Positions 19,499 to 23,922 of a stretch of 64,000 nt of DNA are shown here, in pieces. How positions within the stretch are numbered: the first letter of the stretch is position 1; every line of letters begins with the position of its first letter. Source of the DNA: Calditrichia bacterium (GTDB lineage Bacteria > Calditrichota > Calditrichia > RBG-13-44-9 > J075); the NCBI GenBank assembly GCA_050633245.1, contig JBOEGD010000011.1, forward strand, positions 256,001 through 320,000, given 5' to 3'. A model generated the notes under the pieces. It searched no databases. It was not told the origin of the DNA and saw only the letters and a program-made list of their open reading frames with translations. Made by a program: the position numbers and the translations under genes.

Positions 19499-19527
19499 TT
19501 GACCCCGTCTGATGAATTGTCTATATT
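19499..19527 (+). promoter_or_regulatory. Putative sigma70 promoter of SLOG-SLATT/AhpD unit
   Basis: TTGACC-17 nt-TATATT. Confidence 0.55.
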
Positions 19528-19622: not shown

Positions 19623-21794
19623 ATGAGCACCAGTCAAATCCCAATTCAGCACATTCTATTTAAGAACGGCCATTCAGCACATTCGGTTTTACACAATGAC
19701 TCTACTTCCATTAAAAATATTGTCCGATCCCTAAAACTACCTGATTTCGAGGGAGTTATTGTCATTGTCGGTGGAACCCAGGAATCCGAAGACGCTGAAA
19801 AGAACTCTCGGATCGAGCAGCTGTTTAATCGTGGTATCCTGCAGGCAGCGCTTAATACCAATGCTTTGCTGATTGACGGTGGTACCGATTACGGCGTGAT
19901 GAAAAAACTTGGTCAAGCGGTTGCCGATCGCAGTGAGAGGCCTGTCATTCTCGGGATTGCTCCAAGAGGCAAAATAAATCTTCCTGGAGAAAATGTGGAG
20001 GGGAACCACTCGCTCGAGCCGAACCACTCACACTTTGTATTCGCAGATTCTGCTAAGTGGGATGATAGCACCTCACTCATGTTTCGCCTGGCAGAGCAAT
20101 TGAGTAACGATAAGCCTGTTATGGCGGTTCTGGTTAATGGTGGCAAGACTTCGAAAGATTGTATTGTACAGGCTACGCGGCGCGGCTGGCGAACGCTGGT
20201 GCTAAAAGGAAGCGAGCGGCTGGCGGATCAAATTGCTGCAACCAATGAGTTCTTTGCTGCCCTTAAGCAAGATGAAAAAGCCGTGGAAGGTGAAGAGACT
20301 ACCACAAATAAGCCGTCCGGGAATTTGTATTGGACGGATGACAAAAAGCCCGTGATTGCCGCTGGAGGCAATGCCGCCGGACAGACGCTGCTGGTTTCCA
20401 ATGATGGATTTATTGCCGATCCGCAGCTCGCTGAAATAGTAATTGATGGCAACCTCGATGTTATCGATTTAAATGAAGGCCTTGAGCCGACTATCGAAAA
20501 ACTCAGCTCAAAGGTTACGGAAAACTTGCTGAGTGACAACTTTCTGGAGAGCGCCTGGCAGCGATTTACACTTTATGACCACAATGCCAATCTACATCGT
20601 GATCGATTTCGCAAGGTGGAGAATTGGGTGCTTTTCTTAAGCGTCTTGTCTACGCTGTTAGCGGTATTTAAGGTTGTGCTCGAAAATCAACTGTTGCTGC
20701 ATCAACTTCGTGATTTGGAGCGCCCGTCATGGCTTTTTAGCAGCTTTCCGGGGTTTGTTGACCTGGCTGGTGATATTAATTCGCTGTACCTACATTGGAG
20801 CATAGTGCTGGTTCCAATTGTTCTTACTGCACTACTAGCCGGCGCAAATCGCTTTAAGTTCGGTAAAAAATGGATTAACCTGCGAGCTAATGCCGAATCG
20901 ATTAAGAGCGAGATCTTTCGTTATCGCTGCCTTTCCGGTCCGTATGGCTGGAAGCCCGAAGAGGGGATTTCGCGCCAGTCACAATTAGCACATCAGCTGA
21001 AAGTGATTACGCGACAAACGATGTTGACAGAAGTTAACCAGGCAGCCCTGTTGCCATACAGCGATGTTGGCGATCTGCTTGCAAAAGATATTCTGGCTCA
21101 AGATACCGGTGAAAATAATGATCGCCTGTTTTGGAAGCATAGCAGCGATGATTTATTCAGCCTGCTTACACCACAGCAATACATTGACTGGCGTGTTAAA
21201 GAACAGAAAGGCTTCTTCGTCTCTAAATCGAACAAGCTTGCAGTGAAGCTGGGACGTCTTCAATGGTCGATATTTATCCTTGCCGGTTTTGGAACGCTGT
21301 TGGCTGCCTTTGGTTTCGAAATTTGGATTGCCGTTACAACTGCGATTGCCGTCGCAATTGGTACCAAACTACAATTCGATCAGGTTGAGGAAACGCTTAT
21401 GATTTATAATCAAGCATCCACCGATCTGGAGAATGTTATTGAGTGGTGGGAGGCGTTAAGTCCGCTTCAGCGCAAACAGCGACGCTTCTTTAATAAGATG
21501 GTCGAAACGACCGAACAGGTTCTTGAAGGTGAGACCAAAGGTTGGTCGCAAAACATGACAGATGCTCTGGCCAAGTTGCGCGATACGCAGCGCGAAGACG
21601 GCTTTATGGGAAGTCTCGAAGCGGCTGTCGAGAATTATAAGGATGATCGAGCACGTGGGAACCTCATTCATCAAATGGCCAATCTGATTAAAACCATTCC
21701 GGATCATGAAAAAAAGGCGCAGCTCGCCGAGGCAATGAAAGAAGTGCTCAACGCGGCTGTTGAGGATCCGGTGCCCGATCCACTGGAGGAATAA
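19623..21794 (+). CDS. TRPM-type SLOG (LSDAT) domain fused to two SLATT/DUF4231-like 2TM domains
   Basis: VIVIVGG, LIDGGTDYGVM, LEPNHSHF, LVNGG, GSERLAD; then W..LRANAESIKSE..RY and YIDWRV..Q..F..K SLATT patterns with TM pairs. Confidence 0.8.
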   Translation: MSTSQIPIQHILFKNGHSAHSVLHNDSTSIKNIVRSLKLPDFEGVIVIVGGTQESEDAEKNSRIEQLFNRGILQAALNTNALLIDGGTDYGVMKKLGQAVADRSERPVILGIAPRGKINLPGENVEGNHSLEPNHSHFVFADSAKWDDSTSLMFRLAEQLSNDKPVMAVLVNGGKTSKDCIVQATRRGWRTLVLKGSERLADQIAATNEFFAALKQDEKAVEGEETTTNKPSGNLYWTDDKKPVIAAGGNAAGQTLLVSNDGFIADPQLAEIVIDGNLDVIDLNEGLEPTIEKLSSKVTENLLSDNFLESAWQRFTLYDHNANLHRDRFRKVENWVLFLSVLSTLLAVFKVVLENQLLLHQLRDLERPSWLFSSFPGFVDLAGDINSLYLHWSIVLVPIVLTALLAGANRFKFGKKWINLRANAESIKSEIFRYRCLSGPYGWKPEEGISRQSQLAHQLKVITRQTMLTEVNQAALLPYSDVGDLLAKDILAQDTGENNDRLFWKHSSDDLFSLLTPQQYIDWRVKEQKGFFVSKSNKLAVKLGRLQWSIFILAGFGTLLAAFGFEIWIAVTTAIAVAIGTKLQFDQVEETLMIYNQASTDLENVIEWWEALSPLQRKQRRFFNKMVETTEQVLEGETKGWSQNMTDALAKLRDTQREDGFMGSLEAAVENYKDDRARGNLIHQMANLIKTIPDHEKKAQLAEAMKEVLNAAVEDPVPDPLEE

Positions 21795-21795
21795 C

Positions 21796-22392
21796 ATGCC
21801 ATGGATTAAAGTGTTTCGCCCGAACGAAACCAAAGGATTGCTGAAGAAACTTTATGATGATGCCATTAAACGCGCTGGTCGTATCTGGGGAATTGTTGGT
21901 ATTATGAGCCAAAATCCACGCGCAATGAAGACATCAATGGATTTTTACGCTGCCATTATGTTTGGTTCTTCACCGCTAAGTCGCGGACAACGTGAAATGC
22001 TGGCGGTGGTCGTATCTTCACACAACCACTGTGTGTATTGAATCCGCGCTCATGCCCACGACCTCCGTGCCGAGGTCGCCGATTTCGAAATTACCGATAA
22101 TACCGCTGCAGATGAATTCGTTCATCAAATTGCAAAAGACTGGCGCGGGGCCGCTTTGTCTGCTGAGAATGTCGCGCTCTGTGAATTTGCGATGAAGCTA
22201 ACCGTTAATCCGCAGCAGATGTTATCAGACGATCTTGATCATTTACGGACTTTTGGCTTTGATGACCGCGCTATTCATGATGCAACTCAAATCGTTAGCT
22301 ACTTCAATTACATTAATCGCATTGCTGATGCACTTGGCGTAGAGCCGGAAGAATTTATTCGTCCGTGGGAGAACTCTCCTAAACCTGTCTAG
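21796..22392 (+). CDS. AhpD/CMD-family peroxidase, predicted selenoprotein (Sec at codon 82, CVYU)
   Basis: Two ORF-track fragments share one frame, separated only by TGA 22039-22041: REMLAVVVSSHNHC-V-Y-U-IRAH...YFNYINRIADALGV; 198 aa; SD GGAGG. Confidence 0.85.
22059..22078 (+). promoter_or_regulatory. Putative bacterial SECIS element
   Basis: CGACCTC-CGTGCC-GAGGTCG perfect 7-bp stem starting 17 nt after UGA; loop has GU at positions 2-3. Confidence 0.7.
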
Positions 22393-22434
22393 GGCATATT
22401 TGCGATAGCTGAAGAAAGCAAAACAGACGTGACG

Positions 22435-22454
22435 CCCGGTCTCGACCGGGTTTT
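22435..22454 (+). terminator. Rho-independent terminator
   Basis: CCCGGT-CTCG-ACCGGG-TTTT. Confidence 0.65.
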
Positions 22455-22547
22455 CTCGTTGTGCTATTAGCGACAGCTTACTGCCGCTCGATTCCCAATC
22501 ATTATCCAATAAATCTGTTTCAAAAAAAGTGCGACCTTTCGTAAGTT

Positions 22548-23246
22548 GTGCCATTACTAAATGCAGCTCATGAGGCCCCATTGGAACAACGTGAAAAAAT
22601 CTTTTTAGTACTGGCAGGAATTTTTATTACCTCGCTGGTTATGGCGAACCTTGTCGGGATTACAAAAATATTTTACTTCTTCGGAATTGGCATCCCGGTT
22701 GGAATCATACCCTATCCTGTAACCTTTCTTGCAACAGACCTGATCTCCGAGCTCTATGGAAAGAAGCGAGCCAGCTTCGTCGTTTGGGTTGGTTTTAGTA
22801 TGAACGTGTTTATGCTGCTGATAATGACGATCGGCTACTACGCCGCACCGGATATGGATTGGTTTAATGCGATTGCGGCCGGTTCAGAGCCAGGAAAAGA
22901 ATTTACTTTCGACTATATTTATGGCTATATGATTCGCGGCACGATTGCTTCGATGATTGCCTATTTGGTTGCGCAGTTCGCAGATGTCAATCTTTTTCAC
23001 TTCTGGAAGCGAGTTACCAAGGGACGCCATCTCTGGCTACGCAATAATGCCTCGACGCTGCTATCGCAAATCGTAGACACCGTCGCTGTTATGATGATCA
23101 CCTTCGTTGGTGTTCTGCCCATGAATCAAATTCTCGACCTGATACTCTACGGCTATCTCTTTAAAGTCTGCGCTGCGTTATTCGATACGCCATTCTTTTA
23201 TCTTGGCGTGCGCTATTTAAAAGATAAGGTTACGGAAATAGAGTAG
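22548..23246 (+). CDS. yhhQ: Queuosine precursor transporter (YhhQ/Vut_1 family)
   Basis: YPVTFLATDLISELYG, ASMIAYLVAQFAD, LWLRNNAST..SQ.VDT, DTPF. Confidence 0.9.
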   Translation: MPLLNAAHEAPLEQREKIFLVLAGIFITSLVMANLVGITKIFYFFGIGIPVGIIPYPVTFLATDLISELYGKKRASFVVWVGFSMNVFMLLIMTIGYYAAPDMDWFNAIAAGSEPGKEFTFDYIYGYMIRGTIASMIAYLVAQFADVNLFHFWKRVTKGRHLWLRNNASTLLSQIVDTVAVMMITFVGVLPMNQILDLILYGYLFKVCAALFDTPFFYLGVRYLKDKVTEIE

Positions 23247-23289
23247 GGGAGTCTTGTAACATCTACTAATTTGCTTCATCCAATCTGTA

Positions 23290-23922
23290 ATGGACGAACA
23301 AAAATACTATGGAGATGTTATGACGACCTTTTTTCCCAAAGACCGAATTCTTGCAGGCTATACCTACGACCAATTCCTCACAACGTTTGAAAATTCGATT
23401 TCCACTGCAAATCCTACCGAGGATGAGCTTGCGGATCACGAAATGCTTAAGCTTAATCTGCATCGAAGCAAGCGCGTTGCCAAAACGGCAAAGATTTCAC
23501 CTGAACTTCAGTCACTAATCGAACACATTACGGAGCCACAACTTTGGATGGTTCTCACTGAAGATTGGTGTGGAGATTCTGCTCAGACACTGCCGCAAAT
23601 CGCCCGCATTGCTGAAATGAATCCACTGATAACGCTACGCATACTGCCTCGCGATGAGAATCTGGATATCATGGATCGCTATCTTACCAATGGCGGACGT
23701 GCTATTCCCAAACTCGTTGCATTCAGCGAAGATGGTGTTGAGTTATTTACCTGGGGACCGCGTCCGGAAGAAGCCAGAAAGCTGGTAAAAAAGAACATTT
23801 CTGCCGAAACACCTAAAGATGAGTGGCAAAAAGAGCTTCACCTCTGGTATGCCCGAAATCGCGGTATTGAAGTAGATAGAGAATTTGTTGAGGTGCTTGA
23901 GAGTGAAAAAGCGAGCATCTAG
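23290..23922 (+). CDS. Thioredoxin-family protein (single-Cys WCGDS type)
   Basis: LTEDWCGDSAQ, RDENLDIMDRYLTNGGRAIP, WGPRP. Confidence 0.85.
   Translation: MDEQKYYGDVMTTFFPKDRILAGYTYDQFLTTFENSISTANPTEDELADHEMLKLNLHRSKRVAKTAKISPELQSLIEHITEPQLWMVLTEDWCGDSAQTLPQIARIAEMNPLITLRILPRDENLDIMDRYLTNGGRAIPKLVAFSEDGVELFTWGPRPEEARKLVKKNISAETPKDEWQKELHLWYARNRGIEVDREFVEVLESEKASI

Follow-up and report, generated by a model that had tools for sequence, protein, structure and literature searches.

AhpD-like proteins with a CxxU motif are a selenoprotein family known since 2005. Such proteins are recorded from the Sargasso Sea (27 sequences, COG2128; PMC1088965), and the GOS survey tabulates "AhpD-like 1" (COG2128, CxxU) with 299 selenoprotein sequences and 902 Cys homologues (PMC2398784). 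The table of a 2026 review carries the entry "AhpD-like protein, TIGR01926, CxxU" (PMC13188914), and BSepDB, which illustrates browsing with this family, stresses that annotation routinely truncates or misses such genes (PMC13326102). As for function, a DR1765 mutant of Deinococcus radiodurans is reported to be H2O2-sensitive, with complementation depending on the CxxC cysteines, and Mycobacterium tuberculosis AhpD to reduce AhpC with lipoamide-linked electrons (both PMC8945050).

We examined a candidate gene of this kind in the window (the whole 64,000-nt stretch of DNA that was analysed). From the sequence comparisons below, positions 21796-22392 are very probably a genuine selenocysteine (Sec)-decoding gene in which the TGA at 22039-22041 encodes Sec. 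The analysis established the architecture of the gene, its family membership, the Sec/Cys pairing at the TGA, a conserved SECIS-type hairpin and the presence of the Sec pathway in the genome. Like the "AhpD-like 1" proteins of the Sargasso Sea and GOS collections, the gene matches the TIGR01926 profile, has CxxU with Sec in second place and widespread Cys homologues, and carries just past the UGA a SECIS-type hairpin whose small apical loop contains a G. There is no difference in kind; the clade of the present gene is all-Sec among the 17 distinct rows that a quick tree places in it. The closest solved homologue, DR1765 (PDB 6k40), and the "peroxidase-related proteins" solved by structural genomics (3c1l, 2oyo, 2pfx and 2prr) share the aligned motif E-x11-C-x-x-C-x3-H, but they have Cys where this gene has Sec, and identity is about 30%. 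The DR1765 phenotype lends indirect support to a probable role in H2O2 tolerance, through the CxxC cysteines. M. tuberculosis AhpD (PDB 1gu9), the founding member, has the same CMD/AhpD helical core and CxxC...H redox motif but is distant, ranking 50th in a Foldseek search (TM 0.44/0.51). Two further families, NF041238 (AhpD_rel_CFYUT) and NF053654 (YciW-related), share the superfamily and the replacement of Cys by Sec, but the gene scores far below both cut-offs (57.9 bits where the first asks for 175, 19.3 where the second asks for 310) and is a member of neither.

The gene is consequently a new member of a known selenoprotein family and will not surprise a specialist. The sequence-only reading that preceded this work had called it a hidden selenoprotein while noting that AhpD-like selenoproteins had been described. 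The latter is borne out by the review entry cited above; the former is true of gene callers and untrue of the literature, in which the family is listed. The value of the locus lies mainly in annotation: standard callers cut the gene in two, and the correct reading adds one selenoprotein to the selenoproteome of the genome, beside a TIGR01926 paralogue and selD. It also provides a clean, well-conserved example of a bacterial SECIS element whose stem is held by synonymous-codon choice. Knowledge of selenoproteins or of AhpD-like enzymes is left unchanged.

Reading frame, family and fold

The features of the gene are as follows.
21785 to 21789, + strand: Shine-Dalgarno-like GGAGG, 6 nt upstream of the ATG, read from the sequence
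21796 to 22392, + strand: predicted AhpD-like (TIGR01926) selenoprotein CDS, 198 codons plus the stop codon TAG at 22390-22392
22039 to 22041, + strand: in-frame TGA (U82) in the motif C79-V-Y-U82...H86, with E67 upstream; TGA in orthologues, TGC or TGT in distant homologues
22059 to 22078, + strand: bSECIS-type hairpin, 7-bp stem and 6-nt loop CGUGCC, 24 nt past the UGA

Translation with TGA read as U gives a single frame of 198 codons from the ATG at 21796 to the TAG ending at 22392, with one in-frame TGA, codon 82. The peptide around it, N77-H-C79-V-Y-U82-I-R-A-H86, puts the TGA at the second Cys position of the motif E-x11-C-x-x-C-x3-H. This is what the sequence-only reading had described: a frame that stays open on either side of one TGA, which occupies the second Cys of an AhpD CxxC..H motif in NHCVY-U-IRAH. 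The frame can be read directly from ATG to TAG, and the local peptide is identical. Since M1 is near-invariant in an alignment of 36 homologues, the ATG at 21796 is favored as the start over the listed TTG at 21760.

In the ORF list the gene appears as two entries, 21760..22041 with 93 aa and 22156..22392 with 78 aa, the split that had been predicted of standard callers. Taken at face value, this list would mean two separate small genes, 21760/21796-22041 and 22156-22392, and the public protein collection might seem to agree: among the 120 homologues listed (P0002-P0121), 61 are fragments whose first aligned residue is 83. These fragments start there because callers restart right after the TGA. 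A separate downstream gene would, moreover, leave residues 83-120 without a start codon, since I83 is encoded by ATC and the first start listed beyond it is the TTG at 22156. The Cys homologues are single proteins, and one family profile and one compact predicted fold cross the TGA unbroken. We therefore give next to no credence to a pair of genes and treat 21796-22392 as one.

The profile in question is TIGR01926 ("peroxidase-related enzyme", NCBIfam), which the read-through protein matches at 140.8 bits (cut-off 81.8); residues 3-185 align with profile positions 2-176 of 178, continuously across the TGA. The protein also matches the AhpD core TIGR00778 (40 bits, cut-off 27.8) and Pfam CMD (PF02627). 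Against canonical AhpD of the M. tuberculosis type, TIGR00777, it reaches 19.4 bits where the cut-off is 191.95, which makes it a member of the superfamily only. Of the earlier designation "AhpD-like peroxidase", the first word holds on the TIGR01926 score; "peroxidase" is a family name, and the activity is a prediction. Across the 36 aligned homologues, C79 shows at least 90% conservation, and E67 and H86 do not vary. The same 36 sequences were used to build an AlphaFold2 model (pLDDT 95.7), which predicts ten helices and puts residues 79-82 at the N-terminal end of helix 80-92. The best PDB matches of this model in Foldseek are AhpD-like proteins (TM 0.80-0.89, 22-32% identity; TM 0.83/0.88 for 6k40), and a sequence search of the PDB returns the same set (6k40, 3c1l, 2oyo, 2pfx, 2prr) at E values from 1.3e-23 to 1.5e-15. 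On this basis an all-helical AhpD/CMD fold can be predicted confidently.

A single base change turns TGC or TGT into TGA, and the locus might accordingly be a pseudogene, or its TGA a sequencing or assembly error. Sequences from public runs bear on this. No run shares more than 0.11 of sampled words with the window, no RNA run is among those listed as sharing them, and the contigs compared derive from relatives. Long contigs from runs X1 and X2, whose source is a relative with about 90% identity, cover the gene completely; 40 differences are listed for them and there are 37 further ones. Within the ORF 32 differences are listed; third codon positions of one frame account for 25 of them, with 12 of 14 upstream of the TGA and 13 of 18 downstream. 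Indels in these long contigs lie solely outside the ORF; two short, low-depth X4 contigs have single-base deletions inside it, possibly errors. None of the 40 listed differences changes 22039-22041 in the contigs that span the site. Across 16 complete orthologue rows, identity is 59-84% in the N-terminal half and 55-72% in the C-terminal half (one row cut by a contig end was left out of these ranges). These patterns indicate that purifying selection acts on both halves, in one frame. Since, in addition, the same TGA is found in all distinct orthologues, as set out below, and no member of the clade has Cys that would point to a recent TGY ancestor, we consider an error or a pseudogene extremely unlikely and a functional Sec codon the better reading.

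The codon and the hairpin in relatives

All 18 distinct close orthologues available at the DNA level, from at least five phyla, have TGA at the codon followed by the same hairpin. Among genome loci with identity of about 59% or more, the codon is TGA in 13 of 13 (12 distinct). The titles of the orthologue MAGs name Anaerolineae, Promineifilaceae, Chloroflexota, Latescibacterota, Calditrichaceae, Acidobacteriota and Gemmatimonadales, to which four genomes of the source's family are added. Nine metagenome loci belong to the clade; the eight that cover the codon (six of them new and distinct) all have TGA, and one stops short of it. Neither TGG nor TGY occurs at the codon in the 13 genome and 8 covering metagenome loci. 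Distant homologues, in contrast, have TGC or TGT, at 36 genome loci and 32 metagenome loci:
L026-29, L032, L035, L039, L048-76 and L085-117: homologue loci with TGC or TGT at the codon

The scan patterns were back-translated with Cys and not with TGA at this position, so that the retrieval was without bias towards TGA forms. The pairing of Cys with TGA among homologues, which the earlier reading had put forward as a check, is thus found. In a quick maximum-likelihood tree (SH-aLRT, midpoint root; 79 of 97 rows, 18 having been dropped as identical or shorter than 150 aa), the gene falls within a Sec-only group of 17 rows with an SH-aLRT of 100.

A second Sec clade, 36-44% identical and with the motif C-H-Y-U-x-x-H-H-G, is represented by L025, L030, L031, L033, L034, L036, L037 and L038. 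Its hairpin is different (ACGGRG...CUCCGU, starting about 13 nt after the UGA), and several genomes of the source's family carry both Sec clades.

The hairpin of the present gene consists of the stem CGACCTC (22059-22065) / GAGGTCG (22072-22078) and the loop CGTGCC (22066-22071). The loop begins at the 25th nt after the UGA, and its second base is G, followed by U; the perfect stem, the position of the loop and the G had all been read in this way before. Folded alone, the hairpin has a free energy of -10.5 kcal/mol. The bacterial SECIS model, as given in the 2026 review, asks for a loop of 3-9 nt with G within its first two nucleotides, an upper stem of 4-16 bp, a distance of 16-37 nt from the UGA and an MFE of at most -7.5 kcal/mol (PMC13188914). 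The hairpin at 22059-22078 lies within all four published criteria (6-nt loop with G at position 2, 7-bp stem, spacing of 24 nt, -10.5 kcal/mol). As a single sequence, the 62-nt fold is not significant (z = -0.89; 28 of 200 shuffles fold equally well), and of the 2276 TGA trinucleotides counted over the two strands of the window, 13 have an equally good hairpin after them. Since the hairpin alone is unremarkable against chance, the case rests on where the TGA falls, within the catalytic motif, and on conservation in relatives. At E<=1, an Rfam scan of 21700-22500 picked up no SECIS family, its sole hit being an lncRNA attributable to chance (11.2 bits, E 0.054). Rfam is not known to include a general bacterial SECIS model, and this null is thus uninformative either way.

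A consensus 7-bp stem and 6-nt loop are common to all 12 distinct orthologues compared. The stem encodes D-L-R-A-E-V, so its conservation is partly at the protein level and only the synonymous positions argue for selection on the RNA. At these positions codon choice is fixed in a way that it is not elsewhere in the same genes: the stem Asp is GAC in 12 of 12 (72 of 171 elsewhere), the stem Leu is CTC in 12 of 12 (42 of 184) and the stem Glu is GAG in 12 of 12 (69 of 170). The stem Val is GTC or GTT, either of which pairs with G (GC in 8, GU in 4). The outermost pair is CG in 8, UA in 2, UG in 1 and CC in 1, and compensatory change is confined to it. Wobble positions show free variation both ahead of the stem and within the loop. 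In runs X1 and X2, a 24.7-kb contig from a different organism matches the window solely at 22039-22078, with 6 differences, and reads ...A-N-D-C-H-Y ahead of the match. Judged from these alignments, the 40-nt span running from the TGA through the hairpin is the most conserved piece of the gene at the nucleotide level, and the match in another organism's contig lends independent support to a TGA-plus-hairpin element. The clade of the present gene may be a Sec-obligate AhpD-like lineage that has moved between phyla with a nearly frozen 40-nt module of UGA and SECIS.

Since the assignment of Sec to the UGA is drawn from sequence alone, we also considered that the codon might be read through without Sec, by near-cognate Trp or Cys insertion, or that termination might prevail and leave mainly an 81-residue product. 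The codon is easily read otherwise, as public calls illustrate: among the 120 homologues listed, position 82 is W in 26 full-length entries, G in one and Cys in 10 more distant ones. The W and G entries most likely reflect translation of TGA with codes 4 and 25, because the DNA loci of the clade show TGA and none shows TGG; presumably they are gene calls made under these codes on short contigs. Between such entries and the fragments described above, the family is systematically mis-annotated in the public protein collection. Against read-through without Sec, the codon is TGA and not TGG in all eight covering metagenome loci of the clade; the position is that of the redox Cys, and a Trp there would destroy the centre; and the hairpin is placed and shaped like a SelB-binding element and conserved at synonymous sites. 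A further argument comes from the decoding machinery of the genome.

The selenocysteine pathway of the source genome

The source genome is 97% complete. On its contig C20, selA (561 bits) adjoins selB (359.8 bits); both score over cut-off, as do selD (358.9 bits) and a tRNA-Sec (71.2 bits against the Rfam model), which ARAGORN calls SeC with anticodon TCA. The Sec machinery that the sequence-only reading had proposed to look for is therefore in place. TGA keeps its ordinary meaning elsewhere: since it terminates 506 of the 2724 open frames of at least 300 codons, since the sole tRNA with a TCA anticodon is tRNA-Sec and since RF2 is present (525.6 bits), TGA is not reassigned genome-wide. The anticodon of tRNA-Trp is CCA. 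With a complete Sec pathway including tRNA-Sec, a tRNA-Trp of this kind and RF2, decoding or termination at the UGA without Sec is very unlikely, and insertion of Sec remains our preferred reading.

The selD gene itself (G000:C14:56308-57231, - strand, corresponding to L009) has one in-frame TGA, in the N-terminal glycine-rich loop ...T-C-G-U-A-A-K-I-S-P..., at what we take to be the catalytic Cys/Sec site; this genome's selenophosphate synthetase, too, is probably a selenoprotein. Two paralogues were also seen. A second TIGR01926 gene, at G000:C26:110836-111420 on the + strand (L122:137-721), is a selenoprotein candidate of 194 codons (101.9 bits, cut-off 81.8) with one in-frame TGA in C-P-F-U...H and a stem-loop after it. 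The third, at G000:C1:369614-370156 on the - strand, has an ordinary C-D-Y-C motif.

Co-occurrence was assessed in 61 genomes, made up of 60 relatives and the source genome. In the class to which the source belongs the Sec pathway is nearly universal: 51 of the 61 score over cut-off for selA, and 51 for selB. A TGA-containing match occurs in 16 genomes, with the codon position verified in 13, and each of the 16 has selA (E <= 1e-40). Of the 8 genomes without a selA match at E <= 1e-40, none has the TGA form and two carry Cys forms. Since 53 of the 61 genomes have selA to begin with, this co-occurrence is consistent with Sec decoding but weak.

Proposed function and gene neighbourhood

The product would be a 198-residue AhpD-like thiol/selenol oxidoreductase of the TIGR01926, COG2128 or "AhpD-like 1" type. 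Following what is general for bacterial Sec decoding, SelB-GTP-Sec-tRNA(Sec) would bind the hairpin at 22059-22078, inside the CDS, as the ribosome nears the UGA, and the ribosome would then insert Sec there instead of terminating. C79-x-x-U82 would form the redox centre where a helix begins, and H86 and E67 would be its partners, as is usual for the AhpD type. By analogy with the family, C79 and U82 would cycle between a selenol/thiol and a selenenylsulfide state with the aid of H86 and E67, and would serve in peroxide defence, either by reducing peroxide directly or by re-reducing a peroxiredoxin-type partner. In M. tuberculosis AhpD the second Cys is the nucleophile; we infer the nucleophilic residue and the redox partner of the present protein from the family.

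The gene lies among the following features.
19623 to 21794, + strand: upstream neighbour, a 723-aa SLOG/LSDAT_prok (141.1 bits), DUF4231 and SLATT_1 protein
22434 to 22451, + strand: terminator-like hairpin with a T run after it, some 40 nt past the stop, from a consensus scan and a suggestion only
22548 to 23246, + strand: downstream gene, Vut_1 family transporter
23290 to 23922, + strand: downstream gene, Thioredoxin_9 family protein

Because the upstream gene ends 1 nt before the ATG, the two are likely co-transcribed. The 1-nt gap, and a promoter-like site (19499-19527) and the terminator-like site that bracket the pair, led us to consider a functional tie, in which the selenoprotein would serve as redox guard or redox switch of a membrane effector that senses nucleotides, the SLOG(LSDAT)-DUF4231-SLATT protein. 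Terminator-like sites are in no excess over shuffles (5 found against 3.7 expected), and the promoter-like class is likewise without excess. Among 19 orthologue loci the SLOG/SLATT junction is kept solely in the two nearest relatives, L077 and L078; the SLOG/SLATT gene is therefore not a conserved partner and is treated as incidental, and we regard the tie as improbable. No conserved neighbourhood was found among 40 flanking ORFs from 10 orthologue loci, which belong to unrelated families, and no ahpC was seen in the annotated interval 19623-23922 or beside those 10 orthologues. The Thioredoxin_9 gene lies beyond the terminator-like site and was not seen beside the orthologues at the 10 loci; as a neighbour, its product could be a redox partner of the selenoprotein.
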